Of a DNA stretch of 64,000 nucleotides, positions 6,131-56,527 are shown piece by piece. Below the pieces are notes generated by a model. That model was not told where the DNA came from, did no database searches, and saw nothing but the letters and a program-made list of their open reading frames with translations. Numbering within the stretch: the first letter of the stretch is position 1; the number at the start of each line of letters is the position of its first letter. Source of the stretch: Verrucomicrobiota bacterium (lineage in GTDB: Bacteria; Verrucomicrobiota; Verrucomicrobiia; Limisphaerales; SXTU01). The stretch lies in assembly GCA_016235545.1 (NCBI GenBank), contig JACRKB010000032.1, positions 190 to 64,189 on the forward strand. Direction: 5' to 3'. A program made the translations under genes and the position numbers.

Positions 6131-6167
6131 ACAACAATCCACCACAAACAATTCCTGACCTGACCCC

Positions 6168-11003: not shown

Positions 11004-11079
11004 GCGGCTTTCAGCGCGGGCAGGGCCGCCGCGCCGTCGCTCACGTGTTCCGCATCGGGCGCGAGTCAGCTTTTGAACG

Positions 11080-11275
11080 GTCGCGTAGCGACCCCCTGAT
11101 GGTAGCCGTGGGTTTCAAACCACGGATCGGCGTCCGATAGTCATGCGTCGCGTAGCGACGCCGGAACGCCGGCCACGAAAGTGTGTGGAAGGCGGGTGGT
11201 TCAAGCGTCGCTACGCGACGCGGGTTGTCGTTGGCCCGAACCGCGGGTTGAAACCCACGGCTACCTTCAAACTCT
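11080..11275. repeat. Composite REP-like element
   Basis: GGTAGCCGTGGGTTTCAAACCACGG ... CCGCGGGTTGAAACCCACGGCTACC outer inverted pair enclosing GCGTCGCGTAGCGACGC / GCGTCGCTACGCGACGC palindromes. Confidence 0.75.
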
Positions 11276-11389
11276 CGCTCCTGCTCAAATCATGATTTGC
11301 GACCTTCCGCATCGAATGGCGTAGTTTCGGATTGCGTCGCAAATGGCATTCCGGCATTTAACTCGGCAGCACCAAGCAAGGGATACTTC

Positions 11390-15504: not shown

Positions 15505-15621
15505 TTCTGATCCTAATCCTGTTCCTCCCTTCCGAACCCAGCGGCAGAGCAGGATTAGGATTACGAGCAGGAAGGAAGGGTTCGTTCGTGTCTCAATGAA
15601 CCCGCCTCCGAACCTCGGCGG

Positions 15622-17064: not shown

Positions 17065-17134
17065 AACGAAGTCAGCAAACCGGGTGACGCGCGAAGTGTT
17101 CCGATGGGGGAGGGATGTGTCGAGGCGGGAGTGA

Positions 17135-17528
17135 GAAGCCAGAAGTCAGAAGTCAGGATGGGGGAGACGCAAGTTGGTTCTCCGCTGTTTTCGGTGGAAT
17201 GAAAGCCAGCGGGCGGCGGCACTTCTCCCGGAGGGAGCTTGAAGCTTCGCCGGAGGATGAAGTGGAAGCTGGCGTTGCCCTTCAACGCAGAGACGCAGAG
17301 GACGCGAAGGAACGCAGAGGGTTTCAACACCAGCAGGGTTCAGCTTTTCGTGCCTTCGCCCAGCCCTTCTCTGCGCAACTCTGCGTCCTCTGCGTCTCTA
17401 CGTTGAAGGGAAACGCCCTCATGCAAGGGCATCGTTGTGGCTGATAACCCCGCAATCCATTCCACCGAAAACAGCGGGGAACCCGCAAGTTCGGCACTGC
17501 TGCCTTCTGGCTCCTGGCTTCTGGCTTC
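17135..17528. repeat. Triple-nested inverted-repeat element
   Basis: Arms 17135-17158/17505-17528 (heptamers, 4 mismatches in 24), 17177-17201/17458-17482 (1 in 25), 17271-17305/17383-17417 (2 in 35). Confidence 0.9.
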
Positions 17529-25826: not shown

Positions 25827-25830
25827 GCCT

Positions 25831-25899
25831 CGTGCCGGCGACTTGCAGTCGCCGTCATCTGTGTGCACGACACCCGACGGCGAGTGCAACTCGCCGACG
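25831..25899. repeat. REP-like inverted pair (GCCGGCGACTTGCAGTCGCCG family)
   Basis: CGTGCCGGCGACTTGCAGTCGCCGTC ... GACGGCGAGTGCAACTCGCCGACG; same family occurs in-frame at 28282-28306 and 50601-50710. Confidence 0.75.
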
Positions 25900-30727: not shown

Positions 30728-31013
30728 GTCAGCAATTTCTTCTAAGGAACTCCGTGTAAGTTGTTCACGAATCTCATTCGCGCAAGGGGCAATTTTTCGC
30801 AGCCCGAATCTTGGCGGTCTCCCAACGGCCCTTGCTTGTCCCCCGGGCGCAAATCAGGAATTGCGAACCTCTCATTAGCACACGGCTTCAGGGTGTTGGT
30901 GCATGAGCACGATGGCCAGGCGTTTCAACGGCTTTTGCAAACCGCCCAGCAAGCCATCTGGGGCAGACTGCTGAATTCCTGAGCCGCAAGCCGAATTCGT
31001 CGAGGCCAACCCT

Positions 31014-34793: not shown

Positions 34794-34934
34794 TGCCATT
34801 TCGGAATGAGATTCGGTGGAATGGCAATGAACCACGACGTGCGCTGACTCCCTCCCCCTTCCTCGGAGGAAGGGAGAAGGCGCGCGTCGTGGCATCCTGT
34901 TTGCATTCCACCGACCGGCATTGGGAATTGGTAT
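34794..34934. repeat. MITE/REP-like element with imperfect terminal inverted repeats
   Basis: ATGCCATTTCGGAATGAGATTCGGTGGAATG / CATTCCACCGACCGGCATTGGGAATTGGTAT; 34866-34930 aligns ungapped to 52765-52829 (57/65 identical by eye). Confidence 0.7.
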
Positions 34935-38793: not shown

Positions 38794-38814
38794 TGGAAGG
38801 ACTCAGCAGCAGGA

Positions 38815-39212
38815 AAAGAGGAGTCAGCAGCCAGAAGTCAGAAGTCAGAAGTCAGAATGGGGAGTGACGAGGCCCGACACTGTTGCTCTCCTCCCTCGGT
38901 CTCCTGTCTTCTGTATTCTGGCTCCTTTCTTCTGACTTCTGGCCTCTCTACCAGTAGTCGCAGGCTTTAGCCTGCGCGCGGTGAGGGGAGAGATGGGACA
39001 TACGACCCCGAGTGGCCAAGCCCTGAAAGGGCGGCAAAAAAAATGTTCCGCCCCTTCAGGGCGGCGAGGCTTCGTTCCTTTTACCCAGGGCGTTGCCCTG
39101 GGCTGTTATGTGGAAGGCCTTCAGCCTGTGACTTCGGAACCCGGGATGAGGGATGCAGTTGGAGCTGCCAGCCCTTCATCCCTCATACTTCATCGCTCAT
39201 ACTTCATCCCTC
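38815..39212. repeat. Cluster of three repeat families between convergent genes
   Basis: (AGAAGTC)n / TTCTGAC-type arms at 38830-38945; REP-like GCCCTGAAAGGGC..GCCCCTTCAGGGC..CCCAGGGCGTTGCCCTGGG at 39019-39105; (TCATACT/TCATCCC)n at 39143-39212. Confidence 0.75.
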
Positions 39213-39219
39213 CCCCCTC

Positions 39220-40160: not shown

Positions 40161-40252
40161 GAAGTATGAGGTATGAAGTATGAATGATGAAGGATGAACG
40201 GTGAGTGTTCAGCAACGCCGCATTCATCCTTCATACTTCATACTTCATAATT
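40161..40252. repeat. Heptamer tandem inverted-repeat hairpin
   Basis: GAAGTATGAGGTATGAAGTATGAATGATGAAGGATGAA / TTCATCCTTCATACTTCATACTTCATAATT. Confidence 0.8.
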
Positions 40253-41399: not shown

Positions 41400-42610
41400 A
41401 AGCCTCCTCCCGCTTGCACGCTTGCACGGCAGCCCTCCTGCCACGGGCCCACGCGCCCGGCCTTGCCCACGCGGACCAGGTAGTCGCTGTCAAACTCCGG
41501 GCGCCGGCCCGCCACGGCTTCCTTGTCCAGCTCGTAGGCCAGCACGTTCGCGGCGTGGACCGCCGTGAGCGGGCTGAAGGCGTTCTCGAGCGTGCGGCCC
41601 GGATGATGATGATAGGAGACGCACTCCACGACAGGCACCGGGAGGCCCCACAGTCCGAGCAAGTAGCCGCCCACATCCGCGTGATTGCAGCCAAACACGC
41701 CGTGCTCCGCCGCAGTGAAGGAGAGGCCGCCGTCCTGCGCCAGGCGCATCGCCCGCTCATACTGCGCGCTGAAGTTCGCAGCCAGCACGAGCTTGCCGGC
41801 GTCATGCAGAAGCCCGCCGATGAACGCCTCGTCCACCAGCTTCACGTCCGCATTCTCCATGCGCGCGATGTGTTTGGCGCAGGCGGCGGTGATGAGGCTG
41901 TGGTTGCGCAGCGCGACGAGGGAGATGCCGCCCAGGTCCGTGCTCTCGTATTGCGAGAACGTGTGGAGCGAGAGCACGAGCGCCTTGATGGTGTCCAAAC
42001 CCAGGTAGTTGACCGCGTCGGATGCGTTGGCCACCCGTCGGCGCAGGCCGAAGAAGGCGGAGTTCACCAGCTTGAGCACTTGCGCGGACATGCCCACGTC
42101 CTGCGCGATGATTTCGCCGACACGTGCGAGCGAAGCGTCTGCGGATTGCAACTCCTCGACCACCCGCAGGTAGATGACGGGAAGGCTCGGAAGCCGGCTC
42201 ATCTGCGAGACGAGGGATTTGACCTGCTCGTTGTCCAGCGAATCGCCCAGCGCGACCGCACGCTGCACCGTGGCCTTGAGCACCTCGGGTTCACAGGGCT
42301 TGTGCAGATACTGGTGCGTGGAGCCGACGGCCTTGAGCACAAGGTCATGGTCCGCGTGGCCGGAAAGGATGATGCGGACTGTCTTGGGGAAACGCTTCAT
42401 CACCTCGGTGAGGAGCTGCGCGCCGTTCATGCCGGGCATGCGCATGTCGGAGATGACCACGTCCACCGGCACGGAGGCCAGCCGCTCCAGCGCGAGCGCG
42501 CCCGATTCGACAAACTCCATGTCCCACTCGTTGCGCATGGGCCGCAGCATCCGCTGCAAGCCCTGGAGGACCATTGACTCGTCATCCACGAAGAGCACGC
42601 GCTTCTTCAT
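41396..42610 (-). CDS. Response regulator REC-HDOD
   Basis: VLFVDDE, ISDMRMPG, LPSLP, VLKLVNSAFFG, GLLHDAGKL, YHHHP. Confidence 0.92.
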   Translation of the reverse strand: MKKRVLFVDDESMVLQGLQRMLRPMRNEWDMEFVESGALALERLASVPVDVVISDMRMPGMNGAQLLTEVMKRFPKTVRIILSGHADHDLVLKAVGSTHQYLHKPCEPEVLKATVQRAVALGDSLDNEQVKSLVSQMSRLPSLPVIYLRVVEELQSADASLARVGEIIAQDVGMSAQVLKLVNSAFFGLRRRVANASDAVNYLGLDTIKALVLSLHTFSQYESTDLGGISLVALRNHSLITAACAKHIARMENADVKLVDEAFIGGLLHDAGKLVLAANFSAQYERAMRLAQDGGLSFTAAEHGVFGCNHADVGGYLLGLWGLPVPVVECVSYHHHPGRTLENAFSPLTAVHAANVLAYELDKEAVAGRRPEFDSDYLVRVGKAGRVGPWQEGCRASVQAGGGL

Positions 42611-45174
42611 GCCGGCCTCACTTCCCCGGTGCCCGGCGCCAGCGGCAGGCGCACGATGAAGGTGGTCCCCTTGCCCATCTCGGTCTCGAAGGTGATCGTC
42701 CCGCCGTGCTTGTCCACGACCACGGAGCGTGCGATGGCCAGCCCCTGCCCCGTGCCCTTGCCCACTTCCTTGGTGGTGAAGAACGGGTCGAAGACCTTGC
42801 CTCGCGCGTGTTCAGGTATTCCCGTGCCGCTGTCGCCAATGCGCAGCACGGCCCAGTCGCCCTCGCGGCGGGTGCGGACCGTGATGAGGCCCTTGCCCCC
42901 GGAACTGCCGAGCGTGCCGGCAATGGCATGTGCGGCGTTGACTATGATGTTGAGCACGACCTGGTTGAACTCGCCCGGCAGGCACGGCACCGGCGGCAAT
43001 GAAGTGTCGAAGTCAGTTTCCATGTCAGCGAGGTATTTCCATTCGTTGCGCGCGACGGTGATCGTGCTCTCGATGGCGCGGTTCAAATCCACCGGTGTCT
43101 TGTCCTCCGAGCCGGGATGCGAGAAGTCCTTCATCGCCCGGACAATGCTCGACACGCGCTCGACACCCGCCAGCGACTCGCCAATCGCGCGGGGGATTTC
43201 GCCTTGCAGGTAGCCCACGTCCGCCGTCTCCACTGCCTCCTCGGCGGCGGTGATGATCGTCGGCGTGGGGCCGCCGTTCTTCGCAGCGGCGAGCAGGTTG
43301 CCGTGCGCGTCCAGCAGCGCCCCGAGATCGCGGAATGCATCCTGCAAGAAACGCAGGTTGTCGCCGATATACTGCGTGGGCGTGTTGATCTCGTGCGCGA
43401 TGCCGGCGGCGAGCTGGCCGATGGATTCGAGCTTCTGCGCGTGGCGCAGTTGCGTCTCCAGCGCACGCCGCTGAGTCACATCCACGGCCAGCAGGATGTA
43501 GTTGAGGCGGTTCTCCACGTCCGGCTTGCTGGGCGTGACGCTCAAGTTCAGGAAGACGTCCTGATTTGGGGAATGCACGACGCGGAAGTTGTCCAATTCG
43601 AGGTGGCGGTCCGTATGCACCGATTCGCTGATGACGCCCATGAGCCTTTCCCAATCCCAGGGAATCGGCAGCGCATGGAATGGCTGCCCTATCACCGCCG
43701 CGGCTGGAAGGCCGAAGGTTTGCGCTGCCGCCTCGTTCCAACGCGCCACGCGGCCCGCCACGTCCACGCCGATGAGCACGGCGGAAATCGAGGCGAAGAG
43801 CTTCTCCGTCTCCGTGTGCATGCGGCGCATCTCCTCCTCCTGCTGCTTGCGCTCTGAGATGTCGAAGATGACGCCGTCAAGCCATCGCACGCTGCCGTCC
43901 GTGTCGAAGGCCGCCTGCCCCTTCTCATGCACCCATCGGACCGTGCCATCGCAGCGCACCAGCCGGTAGTCGGCCACGTAGGGCTGCCGGCGGTTCAGAC
44001 CGTCCTGAATGGCCTGCACGATGCCAATGTCGTCCGGATGGATGATGGACTCGAACGTCTGGGTCCGTTCCTTGGTGAACTCCGAACTGGCGTAGCCGGA
44101 CAACTCCCATATCAGGTCGCTGATGAATTCGATGCGCCGCTCCGGCGGCGGCGTGCAGCGATAAACCGCGCCGGGAATATTTGAAATGAGCGAGCGGAGA
44201 CGCTCATCGTTCTCGTGCGCAGCCGCCTCGACGCTCTTGCGCGCCGTCACATCACGCGCCACCAGGACGAGCTTCTCCACATCGCCACGTTCGCTGCGGA
44301 TGGCGGAGCCGGTGGACTCGATCGTGCGCCACGAACCGTTCTTGTGCCGCATCCGGTATTCCACCTGGTTGTAGCCGCCTGATGCGACGGCCTCGCTCGT
44401 CGCGGCGGCCACGCGCTCCCGGTCGTCGGGGTGGACCTGTTCGAGTGAATCGGTGCTGTTGATGTCGGATTGCGTGTAGCCCAGGACAGACCTGTAGGAC
44501 GGGCTGTTGTAAAGCCGGTGGCCGTTCACATCCACGACGGAGATGAGGTCGGCGGCATTGTCGGTGATGAGCCGCAGCAACTCCTCGCTCTGCCGCAACT
44601 GCGCCTCGGACTTGCGCCGCTCTTCCAGCTCCCACTTCACCTTGTCGAGCGCCTTGCGCGCGGCCTCGGTGCGCTCGAAGACAACGCTCTCCAGATTGGC
44701 CAGGTGGCCTTGCGCCTCGATGAAATGCTGCCACTTGGAAGTCATCGCGTTCGCAAGTTGCAGCACCTCCAGCATCTCAAAGGGTTTCTTGAGGATGATG
44801 AGCGAGTCCGTGTGGCCGAACGTCGCCAGCACCTTGGCCATCGCCGCGTCAGCCGCGCCGCTGCAAAGCACGATCTGCAATTCCGGCGAGATGTGCCACA
44901 GACGCCGCATCGTTTGATAGCCGTCCAGGCCGGGCATATACATGTCCACAAACGCCATCGCAAATGGCTGGCCGGAATTCTCCGCCACACGCGCATGCAC
45001 CTCCGCCTCCTCGCCCGTGTTCGCGCTGCTCACTTGATACGGCTCTGCGGCCGGCACATGCCCCTTGGTTGCCGAAGCCGGGATGGAAAGAATCCGGCGC
45101 ATGACGGAGTGGACCTGCGGGTCGTCATCCACGATCAGCACACGGCGGTTCTTTTCTGTCGGCAGGGCGCTCAT
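42607..45174 (-). CDS. Cytoplasmic hybrid histidine kinase REC-PAS-PAS-PAS-HisKA-HATPase
   Basis: N-terminal VLIVDDD..FVDMYMPG; VHPDD/IHPDD PAS domains; AHEINTP; NAAHA; FTTKEVGKGTGQGL. Confidence 0.92.
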   Translation of the reverse strand: MSALPTEKNRRVLIVDDDPQVHSVMRRILSIPASATKGHVPAAEPYQVSSANTGEEAEVHARVAENSGQPFAMAFVDMYMPGLDGYQTMRRLWHISPELQIVLCSGAADAAMAKVLATFGHTDSLIILKKPFEMLEVLQLANAMTSKWQHFIEAQGHLANLESVVFERTEAARKALDKVKWELEERRKSEAQLRQSEELLRLITDNAADLISVVDVNGHRLYNSPSYRSVLGYTQSDINSTDSLEQVHPDDRERVAAATSEAVASGGYNQVEYRMRHKNGSWRTIESTGSAIRSERGDVEKLVLVARDVTARKSVEAAAHENDERLRSLISNIPGAVYRCTPPPERRIEFISDLIWELSGYASSEFTKERTQTFESIIHPDDIGIVQAIQDGLNRRQPYVADYRLVRCDGTVRWVHEKGQAAFDTDGSVRWLDGVIFDISERKQQEEEMRRMHTETEKLFASISAVLIGVDVAGRVARWNEAAAQTFGLPAAAVIGQPFHALPIPWDWERLMGVISESVHTDRHLELDNFRVVHSPNQDVFLNLSVTPSKPDVENRLNYILLAVDVTQRRALETQLRHAQKLESIGQLAAGIAHEINTPTQYIGDNLRFLQDAFRDLGALLDAHGNLLAAAKNGGPTPTIITAAEEAVETADVGYLQGEIPRAIGESLAGVERVSSIVRAMKDFSHPGSEDKTPVDLNRAIESTITVARNEWKYLADMETDFDTSLPPVPCLPGEFNQVVLNIIVNAAHAIAGTLGSSGGKGLITVRTRREGDWAVLRIGDSGTGIPEHARGKVFDPFFTTKEVGKGTGQGLAIARSVVVDKHGGTITFETEMGKGTTFIVRLPLAPGTGEVRPA

Positions 45175-45187
45175 CGGAACGGTTTGC

Positions 45188-48100
45188 TCATGCGGCGACA
45201 GGTTGACCGGCCTCCTCCATGGCCTCCGACAGCACGCGCGCGGCGGTGGGCAGATGTGGACGAAGCGCCTCGAGGCGTTCGTTGATGGTCGCCAGCAATT
45301 CACCCGCGCTGAACGAAATCAGCCGGCGATACCAACGAACGAATTCCCGGCTCACCGCAGCTTCCCCGGCGGCAAAGGACGCGGTCTCGGTTCCCTCCAC
45401 CAACTCCAGCAGCAGGCGCGCCGACTCGTGGATGGCATTTCCCCTCTGCGAGCTGCGGCGGAGCAGCGCCAGCGCCTCGCTGCTCTGCTGCGACAGCATC
45501 AACGCCTCCGCCCGCTGCACGAGCACACCGTTGTGTTCGGGGAAATGAGCAACGGCCTCGCCAGTCCAGTCAGCCGCGAACTCGATGAACTCGGGCCGGC
45601 TCAAGGCAAGCTGCCCGCCCAGCAGCCACACATGCGGCTCTTGCGCCGCGTCGCCAACCATCGCGTGCAACGTTTGCAGCGCGTCCACCACGCGACCGCG
45701 CTCGCCCAGCCACCGTGCGAAATCAAATCGCGCCGCCCGCGCTCCGGCATCCTCCGCAAGCGCGGCCAGAAACGCCTTCTCTGTCTCGGCGTGTTGCCCC
45801 GCGCCCCACCGGCACAGCGCGAGCACATGGTGCGGCCCGGCCTTGCGGATGTCGCGGTTCACTGGCGAGAGCGTCGGCTCATCGCGCTTCGCGAGACACT
45901 GATGCATCTGCCCGGCCCCATCAGAGAACTGCTTCAGCTCCAGCGCCGCCAGGCCGGCCATGAAATGAATCGAGGCCGTCAGCCCGCCTTGCTGCGCAAG
46001 CGGTGATTCGACCACGCGCAGCACCTCGGCGAACTCCTTCGCCGTGTGAAGGTGGCAGACATATTGGGTCAGCAATGCTTCGCGCAACTCGGGCACAACG
46101 TCTTTCTTCGGCAGCCCCGCGAGCTGACTGAAGGCTGAACGGTAGTGTTCCAACCCTTCTCGCAACTGCCCGGAGCGCACCAGCTCCAGGCCCATGTTCA
46201 TCAGCAGCATCGGTTCGCCCGGCAGTTCCTCGATGGCCCGTCGCAGCAGCCGTAGATTTCGCTCTATCTTGTTCCGGTCCGCGATGACCTCCGCGCTGTA
46301 GCCGTGGTGCCGCAAGGTTGCCGTGCCCAGGCGCGTCTCCATTCCCCATGCCTCGCACTTCACGAGGATGCTTGGGAACACCTGCTCATGGACGCGCCCG
46401 TAGAAGAACAGGCCCGGCGCGTTGCGCCACAGGCGCGGCACGTAGCACTGCCCGTCCTCTTCTTGCCCGACGTTTTGCAAACGCAGCCGCACGGCCAGAA
46501 CGTCGGCCGCTGCCATGTCCGCCCGCAACTTCGCGTGCTCGCAGGCCGGCAGCTCCTCGTCCGCATCGAGGAACATCACCCAGTCCCCGGTCGCGTGCGC
46601 AAGCGCCGCATTGCGCGCCGCGCTGAAGTCGTCCTCCCACGGATGCGAATACACCTCCGCCCCGCGCATCTTCGCGATTTCCACCGTGCTGTCGGTCGAG
46701 CCGGTGTCCACCACGATGAGCTGGTCCGCCAGGCCCCGCACAGAATCGAGGCACTGGCCAAGAAACTTTTCCTCGTTCTTGGCGATGACGAAAATGGTCA
46801 GGCGCGGCTGCCCGGCCTTTGCGGGCAGCGCGGGCCAGCGGACGTTCGAGACGCGTCCGCGCGACTGCAGAGCCTTGTGAAATCTCTTCGCGGCCCGCCA
46901 ATGCGGGACAAGCTGGCGCGCGCGCGCCGCACACTCGCGCGCCATCGCCACATCGCCGGCAGCCTGCGCCGTCTCCGCAAGCAACAGCCACGCCTCGGGG
47001 TGGAACGGGCGCGCCTCCAGCGCCATCAGCGTCTCAGTCCACGCGGCGAAGTGTTGACCCCGCTGCAATGCCGCGCGCGCCACCGTCAAGTCACCGACCC
47101 GGCCCACCGGCGGCAGCTTGAGCTGAAACGTCGGCAGGCTTCCACTGGCGGTGTCACCACCCCGCGCCACGTCCGTGATGAACGGCGCGGGCGCGGGCGC
47201 CGGAGCGGCGCGCTGCCCTTCACCCGCGAAAGCCAGCAGCAGTTTCTCCCACTCGTCCCACTCGCGCTCGCGCGGAAAGTCCTTCGCCGTCGCCAGCCCG
47301 CCTTGCACCAGGCGCTCGCGCAGAGAGCGGTCGCGCATCAGCTTTTCCACCGCCTCCGCGATGGCCTCGGGCGAGCCCACCGGCACGAGCAGGCAGTTCA
47401 CGCCTTCGCGGCAATACTCCCGCGCGCCTGGCGTGTCCGTGCAGACCACGGCTGCGCCGGCGGCCATCGCCTCTTGCGGCGGGCGCGGGCAGGAGTCGTA
47501 GTGGGACGCGTAGATGAGAATGTCCGCCGTGCCGAAGAGGAATGTCTTGAGTTCATCCGCCGGCGCGACGTGAAACTCGCAGGGAAACTTCGCAAAAATC
47601 TCCGGCCCGGTGCCGGAGATGCGGACAGCGGTGAAGTGCGGGCAGCGCTTCGCCAGCAGCGTCAGCGCGTCGTGGATTTCCTGAATGCCCTTGAACGTGA
47701 GCGGCTCCTCCCGCGTGCCACGCGAGTCCGGCCCAACTATGAGGAGGCGCAGCTTCGAGCCTGGCAAGGCGCGCGACAGCGGGCGGAAAACCGTCTGGTC
47801 CGTGCAGACCGGGAGAATCGCGTCGGCCTTCCGGCCCGTCGTGCGCTCGACCGCGCGGGCGAGGTTGTGAGAATTCGCCACGAAACGCACGCCCGGTGCC
47901 TGATACGACAGGCCCGACAGCTCGCGCAGCAGCCGATGCTGCTCCGTGTCCGGCAGCGTCGCATCGGCGAAGACATACTGGTCGCCCTGTGCGTAATAGA
48001 CCTTCACCGGCGCGGTGACTGCCTTCAGCTCGTGTGTGTTCGTGAAGTAGGTGCTCACCACCACGTCGCTGGGCGGAACGGACGTCGCCATCCCCTGCCC

Positions 48101-51100
48101 TTCCGGCACGCGCACCACTCGCACCTGAAACTGAAACCAATCCGGCTTCTCCGTGCGCGTGACGATGGTCACGTCGTGACCCTTGCGCCGCAGCTCCTCC
48201 GCCTGCCGCAGCAGCGTCTGGTTGCCGCCAGTCACGCCGAGAATGCTCTCGATGAGATAGGTCACGCGCAGCGTGCGGTCCGGTGTGGCTGCGGCTTCAC
48301 GGGGCGGCGAGGCCGGCACGGCACTGCCTTGAGCAGCGCGCAACGCACTTTCCTCCACCCTCTCATCAGCACCGGGCTTCAGCCCGGTGGAGTGCGCGGG
48401 CGAGGCAGCAGCCGTTTCAACGGCTTCTGCCCTGTCATTTCCGCCCCCGCACAGCACCGCCAGATTCTCCTTCGCAATCGCGTTGTCCGGCTCCAACTCC
48501 AGTGCGCGCGCGATGACGAGCCGTGCCGTCTCCCTGTCGCCCGCGTGCTGAAGGCAGAACGCCAGGCCCAGCAGCGTGTCCACGCAGTCGGGTGACTGTT
48601 GCAAAATGCGTCCGAAAACCTTCGCCGCATCCGCCCAGCGGCCAGCCTCGCGGTTCAGCCGCGCGAGCAGGCGCAGCGCGTCGAGATTCTCCGGCTCCAA
48701 CTCCAGCGCACGCGCCAGCGCCGCTTCGAACTCCTCGACGCGGCCAAGCTGCACGGCCGTCGTGGCCAGCTTCAAGTGCGCAGCCGCGCTCCGTGGCTTG
48801 TGCCGGACCGCCAGCACAAATTCCACTCGGGCCGGCTCCAGTTCGCCAAGCTGGAACAGCACGCTGCCCAACGCTTCGCGCAGCTCGCCAGACTCCGGCA
48901 GCAGCGCAACCGCCTGGCGAAGCGCATCCCGTGCGCCGGGCAGGTTGCCTTGGCTGAAGTGCGTTTCGGCGCGGGCAATGTGTTCACTCACAAACACAGC
49001 CGGACGCTGCGCCTCCGCCTCCGGTGCGACGCGTGCCCACACCTGCGACGCCCACTCGTGCGACGCGGCGTCGTAAGTCTTCGGATGGTTCAGCACGATG
49101 CGCGCGCGCAGCTCCGCATCGCGCTTCGCCGCCGTGGTCAGCATGCTGCCGGCCTTGATGCGATAGCGGAACAACGGCTCGGCAATCTTCCGCGCCTTGA
49201 ATCCTCGCTCCGCAGCGCCAATCCAAAAATCCCAATCCTCGTAGCCCCAGACCAGGTTCGGATTGTAGCCTCCCACCGCATCGAAGACCTCACGCCGGTA
49301 GAGCGAGCAATAGTTGAGCTGGTTGAGCGTCGCCAGTTTCGCGAGGGAGAACTCGCCAGTCTGAAATACGCCGTCGGCATCCCCGAAGCGCAGCAGGTCG
49401 GTGAAGACGATGTGCGTGTCCGGGTTGGCTTCGAGCACCGCGACCGTCTTTGCGAGGAAGTCCGGCGCGAGCCCATCGTCGGCGTCGAGCGGGAGAATGT
49501 GTTTGCCCAGTGCGAGGGCGATGCCGTTGTTGCGCGCCATCGCAAGGCCTTGGTTTGGCTGGTTGAGCAGGTGGATTCGGTGCGATGGATTTTCGCGAAT
49601 CAGCCGCTCTGCGACCGCGCTGGTGTCATCGGGGCTGCCGTCGTTGACGATGATGATTTCCCACTCGGCGTGAGTTTGAGCGAGCACGCTGGCCACGGCC
49701 TCGGGCAGCAGGTGCGCCTGCTTGAAGCACGGGATGACGACGGACACGAGCGGCGGGCAGGCCGACTTCGCGACGAGGAGCAGCTCGACTTCCTGATGGC
49801 AGGCGTTCGGGGTGAAGCCGTCGTAAGCGGCCACGTTCACTCGCTGGCCCTCGGCGAAGAGCCGCGCCAGCGTGGCGGGCGAAAGCTCGTTGCGCGCGCC
49901 GGCACGGTTGTTGAAGTCCGCTTGGACCTTGTTGACCGGCGCGCAGAACGTGAGCGACTGCGGCACGCAGAGCAGCAGCGGATGCGACTCGCGGAAACGC
50001 GGCGCGCTCTCGGCGAGGCGGGCTTCGAGCGTGTTGGGATTATTGAAGTCGAGCGACTCCAGCAGCGGGCGCAGGTCTGCCAGCCGGTAGAGCGAGCTGG
50101 AGACTTCAAGCGGATATGCGAAGTCGCAGTCCGCACCGGGCCACGCGAAGGCGAGCGTGGCCGCGCCGGGTTCAGCGAATGTCGGCAGTGCCTGCGCACG
50201 GTTGAGCGGATAGCAATAGGTCGTGTTCCGGCCCAGCCGCAGGGAATGGCCCACCGCGCGCGGCTCGATGGCGAGCTGGGCGCTGAGTTCAGCGAGCGTG
50301 AAATCGCGGACGAACAAGTTGTCGTCCACGAGGAAGAGAACTTGGTCCGCACCGGCAATGGATTGAAGCAGGTCGGTCTTGAAGCGCTGCTCGGCGATGA
50401 ACTCGGCGGCGGGATACTCACGGGTGAGCGCGGCGTATTGGACACGGTGCGCGGTGTCGCTGGCACAGTGAAGGACACGCAGCTTCGCGCGCCCGGCGTC
50501 GCGGCAATGGCGATAGAACGAGCGGATGGTGGCGTCGAGCTGGAGCGCGCGGTCCTTCGAGAAGATGACGGCGGTGATGGCGGCTGGCTCCAGCGGCTGT
50601 GCCGACGACTTGCAGTCGCCGGCGGTTGGAGCAACCGCAACTGGACTTGGTGCGTTGCAGCAGCCACTGGTAGCGGGGGATGCGACAGACGGCGACTGCA
50701 AGTCGCCGGCACGGGTGCGGGCGTGAGCGAGGCGGAGATACAACTCCTCCCAGCGGTCCACGACGGAATCCCACGTCAGCTTCTCCTTCCACTCGCGGTG
50801 TCCGGCTTCGGCGAGCTGGACGCGAAGGCTCTCGTTGTCGAGCAGGTGCGAGGCTTGCGCGGCCATGTCGTCGGGCGCGCAGACCACGCCGCCCTGCCAC
50901 TCGCGGACGTTGCCGCAGTCGGTGGAGACAAACGGCAGGCGCGCGGCCTTCGCTTCGATGATGACCAACGGAGACGCCTCGACGTGCGAGCCGAACAGGA
51001 ACACGTCGGCACTGCGGAACGCGGCCACAACATCTTCGCGCGGCACACCGGTGAGGAAGCGCACGTTCAGGCCGGCGGCCTGCGCACGCAGCGCGGCGAG

Positions 51101-54100
51101 CGTGCCGCCGTCGTGGCCGATGAAGACCATCGTGAAGTCCGGCCGGGCCATGCGGCGGACGGTTTCGAGGACGCGCTCCTGGCCTTTGCCCGGCATGAAG
51201 TTCGCCACGCACAGGCCGAAGTGGCGCGTGGTGAGGCGATACTTCTCCCGGAAGTTCACGGCCAGCGGGCGCGTGAACTCGTCGGTGTCCGTGCCGTTCG
51301 GGATGACGAGGCCGTTCTTCAAGCCGAGGCGTTCGCCGAACGCGAAGTCCTGGTAGGTCGCCGAGTGATAGACCGCCGCGTCGTAGAGCGGCAGCACCGC
51401 CGGCAGGAAGTCCTGAAAGTAGGCGCGAAACTGCGGCCAGCGCAGCGTGCCCGCGTCGGCGAGCGCCGAGTAGCCGCACGGCGCAAGGACGTTGGCGCGG
51501 CGCGGGCGAAGCTCTTGAAGCAGCGGCATGGCGAGGTCGGTGGCCCATTGCTGCGCGGCGTAATTCATCATCACGTCGCAGTTGAACTCGCGGAGGAACT
51601 GCTGGTAACGGGCGAACTCGCCGTTCACGCCTTCGGCCAGTTTGCCGCTGACGGCGAACTCAACGATGCCGACGCCGTTCAACTCGCGGAACGCGCGGTC
51701 CGGCAACTTTGTCGTCGCCACCGTCACGCGATGGCCACGGCGCGCGAGCCGCTCGGAGAGCTGCTGGACGACCAGCTCCGCACCGCCGGTGTGCGGGGCG
51801 TAGAACTCGACGGTGTGCAGGAGGTTGAGGCGCGTTGAGCCGCCGGCCCGGCGCGGGGTGCGCGCTTCCGGCGTCGTGGCGCGGGAGGCGACCTGGCCGG
51901 CCTGGTAGTCGGCGCGGATGATGGCGGCGAGTTCCTCCTGCTGCTGCGCGCGCGTGCTGCCGACGCTGGCGGGATGCAGCCGAATGCGGTGCAGGACTTC
52001 GGGCAAGTTCGCCAGCTCGAAGCCGGCGAGCAGCGCGCGGGCGAAGAAGTCGTAGTCGTCCACGGAGCGGAACGCCTCGCGATACGGGCCGACCTGCTCG
52101 AAGACGGCGCGACGAATTAGCGCGGCGCTGTTCACCATCGAGTTCAGCTTGCCGAAGGTCGCACGAATGCGGGCTGGCTCGTGCTCCAGCGGCGGGCAGC
52201 CTAGGGATTTGCCGGTGTCGTCGAAGTATTCCGCGAAGCAACCAATGGCGGCGATGTCAGCGTGCGTCTCCAGGTGGGCCACGAGCTTCGCGAGCTTGTC
52301 CGGCAACGACAGGTCATCGCTGTCGTGGTTGAGCAAATAGCGCGAGCCGGGGTGCGCGGCCATGACAGCCTCGTTGCGCGCGGCGACCTCGCCGCGATGC
52401 GACAGGGCCAGCACGCGGATGCGTGGGTCGCGCTGCGCGTAGTCGCGAGCGATGGCGAGCGTGCGGTCGGTCGAGCCGTCGTCGGCGAGGAGGATTTCAA
52501 AGTCACCGAAGGTCTGGGCCAGCAGCGAGTCGAGTGTGGTCGGCAAGTAGTGCTCGCGGTTGTAGGCGGGGATGAAGATGGAGACGAGCGGCGGGCGTGC
52601 GCTGAGGGTGGTGGCCGTCGCGACTGGTGCGGCGCACACCGCCGCAGTCCGACTCCCGCTCGCTTCCTCGGAGGAGGGGAGAGGGTTGGGGTGAGGGGTG
52701 ACGTGCGGAGGCGTTGGCACCTCCCACCCCTCATCCGGCCTGCGGCCACCTTCTCCCCTCCTCCGAGGAAGGGAGAAGGCGCGTCTCGTGGCGTTCGGTT
52801 CGCATTCCGCCGACTGGCATTGGGAATTGCTAATAGTCAGCGCGCCGTGGAGTTGTGTGAACTTTTCCATCCAGATGCTGTGCAGGCGGGTTTCGCTGGC
52901 GGAGGCATCCACGAGGTTCTCGCGGAGGATGTCGGCCACGGCGGTGGCAAGCTCGCCGGGCGAACGCATCACGACCTTCACGGCGGTGGCGGTGACGTTG
53001 CGCGTCATCTGCCATTCGCCGAGCTGGCAGTGGACTTCGCCGAAGCCGAGCGCGCCGAGGACGCGCTGGTATTTGGCTGGATACCAGCCGTCGTAGTGGA
53101 CCGCCCAGGCGGCCTCGTGCGAGCCGAAGAGGTGGCGAAGGACGACTTGTTTTTGAGCGAAGCTGGGCTGCGGCTCCGTGAGCAGACGCGCAGAAGCCTC
53201 GGCGTCGGGGGTCTCGATGGTCAGGCGACCGCCGGGCTTGAGCCAGCGTTGCCAGCGGCAGAGCAGCGCGAGCGCGGTGGGGCGGTCGAAGTGCTCGAAG
53301 ACGTGGTGCAGCCGGACTTCGTCCACGCTCGCGGCGGGAAGGTCGAGGCGGATGATGTCGGCGAAAATGTCCGCCGCGACGCTGGTCTGCACGGTGTGCT
53401 CGGCGGGCGGGAAGTCCACGTTCACGTAGCCATCGAAGCGCTGCTCGCCGCAGCCGAGGTGCAGGCGCAGTGGGGCGCCGGGCTGCCAGAGGTGCGCCTG
53501 CTGAAGTTGGGCCAGAAAGCTGCGCTCAGCGGAGCCGCCGCCGGTCGGCTTCCAGCGCGGCTTCGACGCCGGGGCGGGGTGCAGGTCGCGGAGAAATTTT
53601 TCAAAAAACGCCGTGGTGGAATACTCACGCACGGCGCGCTGATGGGCGCGCTCGGCGATGGCGGCGTAGCGCGGATAGTCGGCAAGGATTGCGCGCAGGA
53701 TGTCTTGAAGGCGGTCCGGCTCGAAATAGACAAACTCGGTGCCCGGCTCGAAGTAGCGCTCGACGAGATTCCACGGGTCGCGCTGGCAGAGGATGAGCGA
53801 GCGGCAGAAGGCGGCCCCGAAGAGCCGCGACTTGAGCTGCGGTGCCGGCCATGTCTGGTCGGGCGCGGCGGCGAGGAGTTCCGCGCTGCCGGGCAGCGGG
53901 AGCTGGGAGAAGGCCGTGTTCTCGCGCCAGTGCGCGTGTCGCGCGACGTTTTCAATTTGCTGCCGGGTGACGAAGAGCTGGTTGTGAACAAGTGTGACGC
54001 GGGAGCGGGCGATGAGGGAGAGCTTCTCCTGATAGCTGCAATTGAAGTCTGTCACCGCCGGGTGCCGGAGCTGCGAGACGAAGCGATGGCGGAACGGCGC

Positions 54101-54535
54101 GAGGTCGCGGATGAGCCTGTCAATGCCGGCGGCATGGACGCCGCCGGTGTAAATGACATCGAACTCCTTCGCGCACGGCGCTGGCGTGTGGCGCTCGTTG
54201 AAGGGGAAGAACGCGGGCGTCCAGCGGTCGGTCTCTCCCCGGCGGTTGAGCCACTCGGCGGTGAAGGGGCAGAGCGTGAGGACATTCGCGAAGCGCTCGT
54301 CGCGGTCGAGGTGATGGAAGTCGGTGGCAGACTCGGGCACCAGGAACCGGTTCGGCTCCTCGAGTTCGAGATAGACCGCGCGCTCATCGGGTGGAAGCGC
54401 GTCGAGCGCCTTGAAATCGAAGTGGCCGGCGAAGAAAGCAAAATCGCCGGCGGTCTGGCCGGCGAAGCGGGTGAAGTCGAAGTAGCGCGCGGGGTCCTCG
54501 GGGTAGGTCCGCGCATGGTCGGTGATGACACGCAT
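45188..54535 (-). CDS. Giant (~3,115 aa) multidomain glycosyltransferase: GT-B-like / SAM methyltransferase / GT2 / GT4 / GT-A-like / GT2 / TPR / GT4 / GT2 / TPR
   Basis: Single open frame; LHLGCG..HVFEHF (methyltransferase), VSIFIPAYN..DDGSTD..DSDD, FRSADVFLFGSHVEASPLVIIEA, IFSKDRALQL..FLVDD, VSVVIPCFK..NDGSPD..LDADD, ADILIYASHYDSCPRPPQEAMA, IAKNEEKFL..DTGSTD..LDADE..VHEQ, TPR helices. Confidence 0.9.
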   Translation of the reverse strand: MRVITDHARTYPEDPARYFDFTRFAGQTAGDFAFFAGHFDFKALDALPPDERAVYLELEEPNRFLVPESATDFHHLDRDERFANVLTLCPFTAEWLNRRGETDRWTPAFFPFNERHTPAPCAKEFDVIYTGGVHAAGIDRLIRDLAPFRHRFVSQLRHPAVTDFNCSYQEKLSLIARSRVTLVHNQLFVTRQQIENVARHAHWRENTAFSQLPLPGSAELLAAAPDQTWPAPQLKSRLFGAAFCRSLILCQRDPWNLVERYFEPGTEFVYFEPDRLQDILRAILADYPRYAAIAERAHQRAVREYSTTAFFEKFLRDLHPAPASKPRWKPTGGGSAERSFLAQLQQAHLWQPGAPLRLHLGCGEQRFDGYVNVDFPPAEHTVQTSVAADIFADIIRLDLPAASVDEVRLHHVFEHFDRPTALALLCRWQRWLKPGGRLTIETPDAEASARLLTEPQPSFAQKQVVLRHLFGSHEAAWAVHYDGWYPAKYQRVLGALGFGEVHCQLGEWQMTRNVTATAVKVVMRSPGELATAVADILRENLVDASASETRLHSIWMEKFTQLHGALTISNSQCQSAECEPNATRRAFSLPRRRGEGGRRPDEGWEVPTPPHVTPHPNPLPSSEEASGSRTAAVCAAPVATATTLSARPPLVSIFIPAYNREHYLPTTLDSLLAQTFGDFEILLADDGSTDRTLAIARDYAQRDPRIRVLALSHRGEVAARNEAVMAAHPGSRYLLNHDSDDLSLPDKLAKLVAHLETHADIAAIGCFAEYFDDTGKSLGCPPLEHEPARIRATFGKLNSMVNSAALIRRAVFEQVGPYREAFRSVDDYDFFARALLAGFELANLPEVLHRIRLHPASVGSTRAQQQEELAAIIRADYQAGQVASRATTPEARTPRRAGGSTRLNLLHTVEFYAPHTGGAELVVQQLSERLARRGHRVTVATTKLPDRAFRELNGVGIVEFAVSGKLAEGVNGEFARYQQFLREFNCDVMMNYAAQQWATDLAMPLLQELRPRRANVLAPCGYSALADAGTLRWPQFRAYFQDFLPAVLPLYDAAVYHSATYQDFAFGERLGLKNGLVIPNGTDTDEFTRPLAVNFREKYRLTTRHFGLCVANFMPGKGQERVLETVRRMARPDFTMVFIGHDGGTLAALRAQAAGLNVRFLTGVPREDVVAAFRSADVFLFGSHVEASPLVIIEAKAARLPFVSTDCGNVREWQGGVVCAPDDMAAQASHLLDNESLRVQLAEAGHREWKEKLTWDSVVDRWEELYLRLAHARTRAGDLQSPSVASPATSGCCNAPSPVAVAPTAGDCKSSAQPLEPAAITAVIFSKDRALQLDATIRSFYRHCRDAGRAKLRVLHCASDTAHRVQYAALTREYPAAEFIAEQRFKTDLLQSIAGADQVLFLVDDNLFVRDFTLAELSAQLAIEPRAVGHSLRLGRNTTYCYPLNRAQALPTFAEPGAATLAFAWPGADCDFAYPLEVSSSLYRLADLRPLLESLDFNNPNTLEARLAESAPRFRESHPLLLCVPQSLTFCAPVNKVQADFNNRAGARNELSPATLARLFAEGQRVNVAAYDGFTPNACHQEVELLLVAKSACPPLVSVVIPCFKQAHLLPEAVASVLAQTHAEWEIIIVNDGSPDDTSAVAERLIRENPSHRIHLLNQPNQGLAMARNNGIALALGKHILPLDADDGLAPDFLAKTVAVLEANPDTHIVFTDLLRFGDADGVFQTGEFSLAKLATLNQLNYCSLYRREVFDAVGGYNPNLVWGYEDWDFWIGAAERGFKARKIAEPLFRYRIKAGSMLTTAAKRDAELRARIVLNHPKTYDAASHEWASQVWARVAPEAEAQRPAVFVSEHIARAETHFSQGNLPGARDALRQAVALLPESGELREALGSVLFQLGELEPARVEFVLAVRHKPRSAAAHLKLATTAVQLGRVEEFEAALARALELEPENLDALRLLARLNREAGRWADAAKVFGRILQQSPDCVDTLLGLAFCLQHAGDRETARLVIARALELEPDNAIAKENLAVLCGGGNDRAEAVETAAASPAHSTGLKPGADERVEESALRAAQGSAVPASPPREAAATPDRTLRVTYLIESILGVTGGNQTLLRQAEELRRKGHDVTIVTRTEKPDWFQFQVRVVRVPEGQGMATSVPPSDVVVSTYFTNTHELKAVTAPVKVYYAQGDQYVFADATLPDTEQHRLLRELSGLSYQAPGVRFVANSHNLARAVERTTGRKADAILPVCTDQTVFRPLSRALPGSKLRLLIVGPDSRGTREEPLTFKGIQEIHDALTLLAKRCPHFTAVRISGTGPEIFAKFPCEFHVAPADELKTFLFGTADILIYASHYDSCPRPPQEAMAAGAAVVCTDTPGAREYCREGVNCLLVPVGSPEAIAEAVEKLMRDRSLRERLVQGGLATAKDFPREREWDEWEKLLLAFAGEGQRAAPAPAPAPFITDVARGGDTASGSLPTFQLKLPPVGRVGDLTVARAALQRGQHFAAWTETLMALEARPFHPEAWLLLAETAQAAGDVAMARECAARARQLVPHWRAAKRFHKALQSRGRVSNVRWPALPAKAGQPRLTIFVIAKNEEKFLGQCLDSVRGLADQLIVVDTGSTDSTVEIAKMRGAEVYSHPWEDDFSAARNAALAHATGDWVMFLDADEELPACEHAKLRADMAAADVLAVRLRLQNVGQEEDGQCYVPRLWRNAPGLFFYGRVHEQVFPSILVKCEAWGMETRLGTATLRHHGYSAEVIADRNKIERNLRLLRRAIEELPGEPMLLMNMGLELVRSGQLREGLEHYRSAFSQLAGLPKKDVVPELREALLTQYVCHLHTAKEFAEVLRVVESPLAQQGGLTASIHFMAGLAALELKQFSDGAGQMHQCLAKRDEPTLSPVNRDIRKAGPHHVLALCRWGAGQHAETEKAFLAALAEDAGARAARFDFARWLGERGRVVDALQTLHAMVGDAAQEPHVWLLGGQLALSRPEFIEFAADWTGEAVAHFPEHNGVLVQRAEALMLSQQSSEALALLRRSSQRGNAIHESARLLLELVEGTETASFAAGEAAVSREFVRWYRRLISFSAGELLATINERLEALRPHLPTAARVLSEAMEEAGQPVAA

Positions 54536-54599
54536 AAAGTTTTTCGGGCTGGGTGCGCCAGCCCGGTTGCAATCGCTCAATCCACGGCGGGAAGAGGTT

Positions 54600-55637
54600 T
54601 TAGTTGCGCTGTGCGCGGCGCACGTCGCGCACCCAGGCGAGGCCCAGCTCGAAGACGACGGGCGGGATGTAGGCCTTGCCTTGCAGGCCGAGGTAGAGGC
54701 GTTCGAGCTTCTCGACGATGTCGCCGTCGCCGAGCTTTAGTTCGAGAAGGTCGCGGCAGAACTGCGGTGTGTGCTCCATGCCGAAGACCTCGTCCTTGAG
54801 GTTGCGCCACCGGCTCTGCGGGTTGCGTTCCTGCCAGACGTAGGGCTTGCCGTAATGCACATGGTAGTCAGTCTCCATCATGATGCGCTCGGCGATGTAG
54901 GAGGCCCAGATGTCGTCGTAGCGGCCCACGCCGACGAGGACCATGAGCAGCGGGGCCAGCTCGGCGACGAAGCCGGTGTTCTGCGTGTTGAACGGCGAGA
55001 AAGTGCCGCGCTCGACGCTCACGCCGGTGTGGAGCAGGTCGGAGAAGTGCTGGACGAGCGGCTGGTTCGTGATGCGGTCCATCGCGTCAATGTCCGGGTC
55101 GCCGAGCCACAGGCCTGCGGCGACGCCGACGCGACGGTTGGTGCAGGGGCGGAGCTGGAACGGCGCGGCGGGCTGGCGCTGCTCGTAGGAGAAGCCGCGA
55201 TGAAAGACATTCGGCAAGAGCATCGTGCCGATGTTGAACCAGCCGCCGGGAAGCTGGCAGTTTGATGCGGAGATGCCGGAGTAGGGGGCGTTGAAGACCT
55301 TGTCGAAGCTCGTGAAATAGTCGTCGCCGACCGGGAGGTTGTCGTCGTCAATCGAGATGATGACCTCGGCCTTCTGGCGGATGGCTTCAAGCAACGGGAG
55401 GTTGCGCCGCATGATTTTGTTCCAGCCGATGATTTCGGAGGACTCGTAGCCGAGGTTCGCCTGGTCCTCGTCGCTGAGATACACGGCGTTGCCGAGGGAC
55501 TCGACGAAACGGCGGGTCTCGGCGTGCGGCGTCTTCTTGTCGCCAGCCACGATGATGGACACGTCGGGGCCGAGCTGGCGGTAGCGTTCGAGAACTTTGG
55601 GAACGAAAATGGTGGTGGTGATGAGGGCGGTTTTCAT
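54600..55637 (-). CDS. RGP/UDP-arabinopyranose mutase (GT75) or STELLO/DUF288-like protein
   Basis: IVAGDKKTP, ISIDDDN, FHRGFSY, GLWLGDPDIDA, PFNTQNT, GRYDDIWASY motifs; start trimmed to ATG 55637. Confidence 0.75.
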   Translation of the reverse strand: MKTALITTTIFVPKVLERYRQLGPDVSIIVAGDKKTPHAETRRFVESLGNAVYLSDEDQANLGYESSEIIGWNKIMRRNLPLLEAIRQKAEVIISIDDDNLPVGDDYFTSFDKVFNAPYSGISASNCQLPGGWFNIGTMLLPNVFHRGFSYEQRQPAAPFQLRPCTNRRVGVAAGLWLGDPDIDAMDRITNQPLVQHFSDLLHTGVSVERGTFSPFNTQNTGFVAELAPLLMVLVGVGRYDDIWASYIAERIMMETDYHVHYGKPYVWQERNPQSRWRNLKDEVFGMEHTPQFCRDLLELKLGDGDIVEKLERLYLGLQGKAYIPPVVFELGLAWVRDVRRAQRN

Positions 55638-55667
55638 GCGGGGCGGAGAGGAGTTGACTTGGTGAAA

Positions 55668-55698
55668 CGCGGCCCCGCCCACAGCGGGCGGGGCCGCG
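55668..55698 (-). terminator. Strong hairpin between flagellin and the GT75-like gene (partial terminator or mRNA stabiliser)
   Basis: Perfect 13-bp stem CGCGGCCCCGCCC-N5-GGGCGGGGCCGCG with only a short TTT tail on the minus strand. Confidence 0.6.
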
Positions 55699-55723
55699 CC
55701 AACACCCAACGAACACAACCAAA

Positions 55724-56527
55724 TTACTGCAACAGCCGGAGCACGCTCTGCGGAAGCTGGTTGGCTTGCGCGAGCATGGCGGTGCCGGACTGGACAAGGA
55801 TGTTGTAACGGGCGTAGGCGGTGGATTCGTCAGCGACGTCCACGTCCTTGATGCGCGAGCTGGCGGCGGTGAGGTTCTCGCGGCTGACGGCTACCTGCTC
55901 GGCGGTGCTGTTGAGCCGGGACTGAAACGCGCCGAGGTTGGCACGGTCGCTGGCGAGCTGGGTGATGGCCGTTTTCACGGTGGTCAGCGCGGCAGCGGCT
56001 GAAGCAGCGGTGGCCACCGAGGCGCTGGTCGCGCCCGTGTAGGCGGCGATACCCAGGTTGATGCCGGACATCGAGAAGGTGTTGCCTTCCGAATCCACGG
56101 TGACACTCAGCGAGGCGGACGCGAACAGGCTCACGCCGTTGAAGTCCTTGCTGGCCGAGCTGGTGACGAAGCTGGACAACTGGCTGAACTCCGACTGATA
56201 GAGGGACCGGTCGGTGTCGGTCTTCGTCACATCCTGCGCGAGGATGGAAAGCTCGCTCATGCGGTCGAGGGCACGGCCGATCTTCTGGAGGAAGCCATCC
56301 TGCGTCTGCGTGAACGAGATTGCGTTGCCGAGGTTTGACTTCGCGGCGGCGAGACGGTTGACCTGCGCGTCGAGCTTGAGCGAGACAGCGAGGCCTGCGG
56401 CGTCGTCGGCGGGGTTGGTGATTTTGGAGCCGGAACTGAGACGGTTCAGCGACTTGCCGAGCATGCTCTGGCTCTCCTGAAGGTTCCGGGCAGCGGACTG
56501 CGCCTGGATGTTTGTGTTGATGACCAT
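55724..56527 (-). CDS. fliC: Flagellin (minimal, D0/D1 only, 267 aa)
   Basis: MVINTN, RLSSGSKI..ADDAAGLA, RANLGAFQSRL, SRIKDVDVA, AMLAQAN..VLRLL. Confidence 0.97.
   Translation of the reverse strand: MVINTNIQAQSAARNLQESQSMLGKSLNRLSSGSKITNPADDAAGLAVSLKLDAQVNRLAAAKSNLGNAISFTQTQDGFLQKIGRALDRMSELSILAQDVTKTDTDRSLYQSEFSQLSSFVTSSASKDFNGVSLFASASLSVTVDSEGNTFSMSGINLGIAAYTGATSASVATAASAAAALTTVKTAITQLASDRANLGAFQSRLNSTAEQVAVSRENLTAASSRIKDVDVADESTAYARYNILVQSGTAMLAQANQLPQSVLRLLQ

Follow-up and report, generated by a model that had tools for sequence, protein, structure and literature searches.

We report that a giant glycosyltransferase (GT) gene at the flagellin locus of a Verrucomicrobiota bacterium contains, in frame and free of stop codons, three different kinds of small palindromic repeat, each at a junction between protein domains. 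The gene lies at 45188..54580 on the minus strand of a 64,000-nt stretch of DNA, here called the window (assembly GCA_016235545.1, contig JACRKB010000032.1, positions 190 to 64,189). The three elements, L1, L2 and L3, belong to families that BLASTN places at 76, 109 and 38 loci of the genome, mostly intergenic, as an earlier sequence-only reading (the first-pass annotation) had led us to expect. Relatives retain the same domain order without repeats at two of the three junctions. We estimate a probability of roughly three in four that repeats of the repetitive extragenic palindrome (REP), REP doublet (REPIN) and MITE (for miniature inverted-repeat transposable element) kinds were inserted secondarily, and tolerated, in pre-existing inter-domain tethers of an already-fused giant protein.

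Three palindromic elements in one reading frame

The giant open reading frame (ORF) is a single stop-free frame of 3,130 codons when read from a TTG at 54580. The source gene call gives one protein of 3,115 amino acids from an ATG at 54535 (P0002), which is the likely translation start. In a Pfam search all domains of the ORF fell in this one translation, in the order GT-like, methyltransferase, [L1], GT2, GT4, [L2], an unnamed domain, GT2, TPR, [L3], GT4 and a TPR-GT2-TPR module. The genome is a 5.0-Mb metagenome-assembled genome (MAG) in 311 contigs, 95% complete, and the sequencing runs that contain the stretch are groundwater metagenomes.

L1 (52645..52832, minus strand, 188 nt, read as residues 583-646) separates the methyltransferase from the first GT2 domain and is a truncated copy of a MITE-like long-hairpin element whose family members measure ~190-240 nt. 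The best of its genomic copies (the 76 loci include L1 itself) are 87-90% identical across 177-194 nt by blastn. Sixteen aligned copies form a long hairpin from which the in-gene copy lacks ~50 nt of one arm; full copies carry long imperfect inverted arms, and no target-site duplication is definable without an empty site. The element folds as RNA at -112.3 kcal/mol (z -7.1), and three of its six frames are free of stops. By eye, 52765-52829 had been matched to an intergenic element at 34866-34930 at 57 of 65 ungapped positions, and our count is the same; a repeat search of the window extends the match to 91 nt at 82% identity, where the element's right half is present between genes at 34843..34933 (strand not assigned).

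Relatives show what this junction looks like without the repeat. The motif-to-motif distance across L1 is 180 residues here versus 108-128 in all six giant relatives that have the methyltransferase-GT2 junction (P0003, P0006, P0007, P0009, P0010 and P0011), and the repeat peptide was seen in none of these six. Stand-alone methyltransferase-GT2 proteins of 478-536 amino acids also exist (alignment A1), and 12 of the 13 methyltransferase-first sequences are gapped over the ~75 columns that the window protein fills; the thirteenth carries an unrelated 25-residue linker. AlphaFold2 run on A1 (mean predicted local distance difference test score, pLDDT, 83) left fragment residues 228-298, corresponding to residues 588-658 of the giant, below a pLDDT of 50 and devoid of secondary structure, and placed both flanking domains mostly above 90; the L1 peptide is thus predicted to be disordered and to lie outside the folded cores. 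Because the stand-alone proteins are gapped, the giant relatives have shorter distances and the modelled region is predicted to be disordered, we conclude that L1 is an insertion of ~55-70 residues in a short tether that joined the two domains of an already old unit. Both domain orders occur among the stand-alone proteins of A1, with the methyltransferase first in 13 and GT2 first in 16. Elsewhere in the genome, an L1-type copy (C262:20767-20886) occupies the 5' end of a separately encoded GT2 paralogue and shares its frame. This paralogue is 39% identical to the GT2 following L1 in the giant, and the copy is probably an over-extended ORF start.

L2 (50597..50712, minus strand, read as residues 1290-1328), between the first GT4 and the unnamed domain, is a REPIN-like doublet in which 21-nt REP units in inverted orientation, 50601-50621 and 50690-50710, are separated by a 68-nt spacer. 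The inverted pair that had been recognized here is complementary at 20 of 21 positions, and its likeness to an intergenic copy also holds: the 21-mer matches at 25834-25854, within an L2-type doublet at 25830..25899 (strand not assigned) downstream of an 891-residue ORF labelled gyrA, putatively, after the first-pass annotation. With at most two mismatches the 21-mer has three matches in the window versus none in 100 shuffles, and with at most three mismatches there are 180 units in the genome (33 exact) versus 2 in a shuffled genome. Each unit is a 10-bp stem with a 3-nt loop. Ninety-one of the 180 units fall into 47 neighbouring pairs, 44 of them inverted; the spacer measures 20-27 nt in 29 of the pairs and 46-50 nt in another 12. 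A test of flanking sequence places 20 of the 109 L2-type loci within coding sequence (the giant gene included); of the remainder, 46 have no open frame, 30 have an open frame without coding flanks and 13 lie at contig edges. L2 folds at -67.9 kcal/mol (z -7.3).

The L2 tether is 72 residues long in this protein and a bare 43 in three of seven relatives (P0006, P0007 and P0008). It measures 48 residues in P0011, 76 in P0004, where the sequence is unrelated, and 422 in P0005, where a whole FkbM module has been inserted. In P0003 it is 60 residues long and holds a degenerate look-alike of the peptide pair (AGGSSAPS...DGGCKPSA).

L3 (48356..48431, minus strand, read as approximately residues 2051-2075) is a two-hairpin element of ~75-80 nt between the TPR and the second GT4. 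Both palindromes noticed there at first were found again, and the 38 loci matched by the ~80-nt element, itself included, comprise an intergenic copy at 30868..30938 (C270:31057-31127; strand not assigned; 74% identity). The fold energy of L3 is -47.8 kcal/mol (z -4.9). The distance across the junction is 295 residues here, with TPR and L3, 79 in P0003, which has neither, ~819 in P0004 and P0005, which have the TPR and two more GT2 modules, and 310 in P0006, with one more GT2. None of the relatives compared shows the TPR-to-GT4 junction in which L3 lies.

All three elements keep strand and frame and introduce no stop. We scored the ORF in 30-codon windows with codon log-odds trained on the long ORFs of this genome. 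The mean is +0.31 per codon, and the score is clearly negative (minima -0.28 to -0.39) only at residues 595-645, 1295-1325 and 2055-2085, with three further windows marginal at -0.02 to -0.05; strong codon signal flanks every linker on both sides. Because the score is clearly negative only there, the linkers are non-coding-like DNA set between coding signal in the same frame. Mostly intergenic repeat DNA that stands in frame and stop-free at three junctions should be translated as linker; we infer this from the stop-free ORF together with its codon scores and the structure predicted by AlphaFold2. In Rfam no family reached its gathering score in the window, where only sub-threshold look-alikes of miRNA precursors appeared at L1 and L2. 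Inteins, introns and programmed frameshifts were considered and dropped, as the frame is continuous and the segments lack matching features.

The sequence itself appears sound. P0003, a protein of a different assembly with 76% identity, aligns collinearly over residues 16-1863 and so spans L1 and L2, and L3 is bridged gap-free by single Logan contigs from two runs of two studies (X1, 47521-48894, no mismatches; X2, 47970-49462, five mismatches). Together with the preserved frame and the single source gene call, these results make an assembly error unlikely. Among the listed Logan contigs no joint skips exactly one repeat and no empty-site allele was seen; the three joints listed have 21-22 letters on their shorter side and lie away from the repeat edges. 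A contig of run X3 joins the L2 arms (50621-50690) with 26 other letters in place of the 68-nt spacer; it most likely derives from a REPIN elsewhere, with a spacer of the commonest length (20-27 nt), rather than from an allele of the present locus.

The first-pass annotation had counted four repeat-bearing junctions, and its fourth, a weaker remnant at 47145..47170 (minus strand), does not stand beside the other three. By blastn, 47130-47190 matches only itself in the genome, and its fold has a z of -0.96, with 37 of 200 shuffles folding as well. The site encodes a GGD-S/T-AS...FQLKLPP motif conserved in all four relatives aligned there. Thus, being single-copy, unstructured and part of a conserved protein motif, it is not a repeat; it marks the conserved beginning of the C-terminal module, where homology to four of the five same-genus giants sets in.

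Insertion weighed against its alternatives

We suggest that non-autonomous small palindromic repeats of three kinds, abundant between genes, were inserted one family at each junction into existing tethers of a flagellin-locus glycosyltransferase that was already fused. Insertions that broke a fold, shifted the frame or added a stop codon would have been lost, and stop-free copies in a disordered tether may have survived nearly neutrally, adding Pro-, Ser-, Ala- and Gly-rich stretches of 25-64 residues. With its many tethers, the giant gene would be a large target for insertion. Giants of 1,624-4,616 amino acids with like modules are widespread, which indicates that the fusions are older than the repeats.

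Several observations weigh against this account. L3 sits exactly at a site of module presence or absence among relatives, as does a REP pair in the giant of another species of the genus (G002, below), and purely passive insertion does not predict this. The degenerate L2-like peptide pair of P0003 occupies the same junction (residues ~1240-1290), yet the arms here are near-perfect, matching the family unit at 20/21 and 21/21 positions. Such arms fit an old insertion poorly, unless they were homogenized or inserted twice. The look-alike suggests that the insertion either is older and shared or struck this junction a second time; the resemblance could also reflect independent insertions, homogenization of the arms or chance. 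No empty-site allele of the giant gene has come to light, and the nearest relative, P0003, is 76% identical and was compared as protein. L1 and L2 are bridged by no Logan contig among those listed, because these contigs break at repeats, and their exact length and frame therefore rest on one assembly. Finally, our genome-wide counts of repeats in coding frames use crude codon-score gene calls made in this analysis.

The alternative that survives best, although we consider it unlikely, is that the repeats are active points of recombination or insertion that diversify the flagellar glycan, as the first-pass annotation had envisaged; copies in different tethers or genes would offer homology, or a transposase would make breaks, for the loss, gain or exchange of modules. 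In its favour is the variability of the giants within the genus. Three other species have giants at the same position, each followed by a kinase gene: G015 (3,018 amino acids, locus L011), G011 (3,082, L012) and G002 (2,706, L013). Their flanking genes are 76-91% identical to those of the window (flagellin 91%, FliW and CsrA 85%, kinase 76%, HDOD regulator 91%). Despite this, homology of the giants is limited in four of five same-genus comparisons to the last ~650 residues (66-77% identity, starting at residues 2463-2475), and the G002 giant aligns from residue 2348 (57% over 804 residues). The upstream part (~2,470 residues) and the adjacent RGP-like gene have no counterpart at the same-genus giants, and given the conserved flanks we regard the N-terminal array as a species-specific cassette. 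One genus junction holds a DUF268 methyltransferase module in G015, an FkbM module in G011 and only an inverted REP pair in G002. At L3, likewise, the TPR module that is extra relative to P0003 ends at the repeat, and two GT2 modules present in P0004 and P0005 are missing. The relatives' giants also hold non-coding-like tethers made of repeats, which have 161-250 blastn hits in the genome of the window and yield peptides such as GARTPTSAAP...ADVGVRAP and SLPLPAGEGRGEGE.

The location of the break points argues against a causal role of the repeats. The same boundaries break in lineages without tether repeats, at residues ~350, 655-664, 900-918, 1288-1305, 1836-1864, 2084-2104 and 2487-2513, and the boundary of the cassette at residue 2471 has no repeat here. 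The swapped modules of G011 and G015 have flanks with no blastn hits on three sides and three short hits on the fourth. Of the four repeat-bearing junctions in the genus relatives, three are flanked by unchanged domains in each of the three genomes; at one junction repeats are present in G011 and G002 and absent from G015, between the same domains. Altogether the cases are too few for statistics. Module swapping at linkers is real, and it occurs also where repeats are absent. The part of the earlier proposal that placed repeats at exchange sites holds for L3 and the G002 pair, which keep the shuffling model alive at low probability; the same breaks in repeat-free lineages speak against the rest of it. 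A more sweeping version, in which the whole flagellin glycan pathway is fused in one polypeptide, its N-terminal cassettes are exchanged between species and REP or REPIN copies in the tethers drive the shuffling, strikes us as at least as doubtful. If true, it would make selfish hairpin repeats a domain-shuffling engine for surface-glycan variation. Were the repeats to promote module exchange, the finding would matter more than as a case of tolerated insertion, and the present data do not demonstrate it.

It is improbable that the insertions were kept for a function, whether as mRNA hairpins that pause ribosomes or that protect or segment the 9.4-kb transcript, or as a means of tuning tether length. 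In favour of a function stand the high stability of the hairpins (z -4.9 to -7.3), the near-perfect arms of L2 and the single frame shared by five of six L2-type doublets embedded in coding sequence genome-wide, which gives AGDLQSPS...GDCKSPA-like peptides. However, relatives manage without the repeats, the genes that host them are functionally unrelated, and a terminator and promoter scan of 45000-55000 found nothing at the linkers. The frame bias rests on few cases, and a purging of harmful peptides would account for it just as well.

Still harder to sustain is an origin by gene fusion, in which formerly separate glycosyltransferase genes were joined by read-through of REP-containing spacers after loss of a stop codon, the first of two options in the first-pass annotation. 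Repeats are typical spacer DNA, the C262 paralogue has an L1-type copy just upstream and in frame, and the TPR-to-GT4 junction of L3 has no parallel among relatives. Against this, the L1 junction is repeat-free in 6 of 6 giants and in 12 stand-alone proteins and the L2 junction in 3 of 7 relatives, many of them distant. When orthologues are aligned, the same domain order exists with and without repeats at L1 and L2, a pattern that the annotation had itself associated with passive insertion, and fusion through REP spacers is rejected there. Overall, its reading of in-frame repeats stands for three junctions, and its fourth site and its fusion model do not.

Least credible is an artefact, either misassembly at the repeats or a decaying pseudogene that is not translated through: the MAG is fragmented and Logan contigs break at L1 and L2 with depth inflated by other copies, but the frame is kept, P0003 is collinear over L1 and L2, L3 is bridged in two runs and the codon signal is strong.

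The flagellin locus and its giant genes

The giant gene is surrounded by a late flagellar cluster that encodes FlgI, a rod-binding protein, FlgN, FlgK, a flagellin-like protein, FliW, CsrA and flagellin, and continues with an RGP-like glycosyltransferase, the giant, a hybrid sensor kinase and an HDOD response regulator. The flagellin gene lies upstream of the giant at 55724..56527 (minus strand), with the 372-residue RGP-like glycosyltransferase gene between them (54600-55718). Downstream, the hybrid sensor kinase gene (42607..45303, minus strand) also adjoins the giant in the genus relatives, at 73-76% amino-acid identity.

Pfam delimits a GT-like domain at residues 249-329, the methyltransferase at 378-495, GT2 at 663-889 and GT4 at 932-1260, followed by the unnamed domain, a second GT2 at 1613-1813, TPR at 1867-2035, a second GT4 at 2117-2450 and the conserved C-terminal TPR-GT2-TPR module, with its GT2 at 2601-2675. 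Six regions are therefore of glycosyltransferase type by Pfam (three GT2-type, two GT4-type and the N-terminal GT-like stretch). TPR and GT modules are here encoded beside flagellin genes, as in flagellin glycosyltransferases of the TPR-plus-GT kind, and this neighbourhood suggests that the giant acts on flagellin.

The C-terminal module is found in 6 of 19 other genomes of the genus and the N-terminal array in none of them. In 16 of 17 related Verrucomicrobial loci the module ends an ORF of 1,624-3,312 amino acids; in the exception, L022, the longest ORF (1282-6882) ends before the match to the module at 10001-11887. FliW or CsrA is encoded within 10 kb of the module in 11 of the 17 loci, which supports, and does not prove, a role of the giants in flagellin glycosylation.

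Giants of this kind are worth study in their own right, for their conserved C-terminal module and species-specific N-terminal array. As far as the excerpted description of Caulobacter FlmG goes (PMC7591256), the two share TPR and glycosyltransferase modules encoded beside flagellin genes; the likeness noted is one of architecture, and the giant differs in being ~5 times longer, with its six GT-type regions and a methyltransferase.

Repeats in coding frames across the genome and in other bacteria

Short repeats with at least eight other copies make up 16.4% of intergenic bases versus 1.7% of crudely called coding bases. We counted 187 repeat segments whose frame is open and whose 300-nt flanks both show coding signal; this census mixed in paralogous coding families, and keeping only segments with a negative in-frame codon score left 79 non-coding-like segments within 68 ORFs. 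The giant gene has three, the maximum for any ORF. Relative to the genome rate per kb, three segments in 9.4 kb represent a ~17-fold excess (Poisson P ~0.001), a post hoc figure for a gene that was chosen for its repeats.

We searched 14 other host ORFs with Pfam, and in the 12 that had matches most repeat segments lie between domains. Examples come from an MFS transporter (central loop), a hybrid kinase (tether between kinase and receiver), an ABC-F-type protein (inter-ABC linker), and AddB and FtsX-type proteins. Others, few in number, fall within domain envelopes, those of a CheW-like domain and a glycoside hydrolase domain. Examples of embedded segments are C4:7776-7968, C48:3008-3154, C188:6143-6314 and C92:30051-30286.

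In-frame insertion of repeats is a previously described kind of event. According to the partial text of Di Nocera, De Gregorio and Rocco (2013; PMC3733652), REPs occur inside genes in several species, Opitutus terrae among them, and intragenic REP dimers encode 20-30 amino acids, with flexible linkers or loops of modular proteins suggested as the sites. Like the GTAG- and CGTC-tagged REPs described there, the repeats studied here are GC-rich, high-copy palindromes, mostly intergenic, often inverted dimers and in some cases in frame. Unlike them, so far as that text reaches, three families share one gene, including a 188-nt composite element, the L2 unit has neither a GTAG nor a CGTC tag beside it in the copies read, and none of the three PF01797 (Y1 transposase) genes of the genome is flanked by L2-type units. 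A different repeat family in the relatives' giants does have GTAG beside its stem.

L2 units also resemble the REPINs and REP-associated tyrosine transposases (RAYTs) of Bertels and Rainey (2011; PMC3116915, in extract) in forming inverted pairs with characteristic spacers. The in-gene spacer of 68 nt is odd in that comparison, and no cognate RAYT for L2 was found in this genome, which is only 95% complete and may have missed it. One Y1 (RAYT-like) gene, at C202:1267-1719, does stand between inverted copies of a ~42-nt repeat from a family other than those of L1 to L3, and C202:1139-1842 is thus a REPtron-like arrangement.

A parallel with Rickettsia palindromic elements (RPEs) had been drawn for the linkers and is apt. 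In the excerpted text of a 2024 MITE review (PMC10969869), RPEs are 100-150 nt long and occur in frame in unrelated genes, where the fold tolerates the encoded peptide and repeat-free orthologues exist. The elements here share with them, as there described, a multi-copy palindrome that is in frame and stop-free in an intact gene, at a place predicted to be outside folded cores, with homologues that lack the insert. They differ in phylum, in being found in a free-living bacterium with a GC-rich genome, in their concentration in the tethers of a multi-domain enzyme and presumably in belonging to unrelated repeat families.

What is notable here is the presence of three families in one 9.4-kb gene, the recurrence of repeats in giants of the genus and the hypervariable N-terminal array. 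The gene provides a clear case, backed by several controls, in which selfish palindromic repeats appear to have turned into protein sequence in a bacterium that is free-living and GC-rich. For annotation, the lesson is that repeat DNA often underlies the unusual low-complexity tethers and N-terminal extensions of such genomes; for protein evolution, that disordered tethers are entry sites for new sequence.

The embedded segments encode recurring peptides, among them GARTPTSAA...ADVGVRAP, VGRDSVEPS...SSVGKWGSTESHP and VGDDVRSL...LLTSSPT, and the insert in the inter-ABC linker of the ABC-F-type protein is 78 residues long. The window also has intergenic tracts of 7-nt tandem repeats, at 7585-7623, 15546-15572, 17122-17163, 17497-17528, 38807-38939, 39175-39218 and 40223-40252, and other ORFs include similar heptamer tracts whose in-frame reading is VQSSKFKVQS or SQLSTLNSQ.

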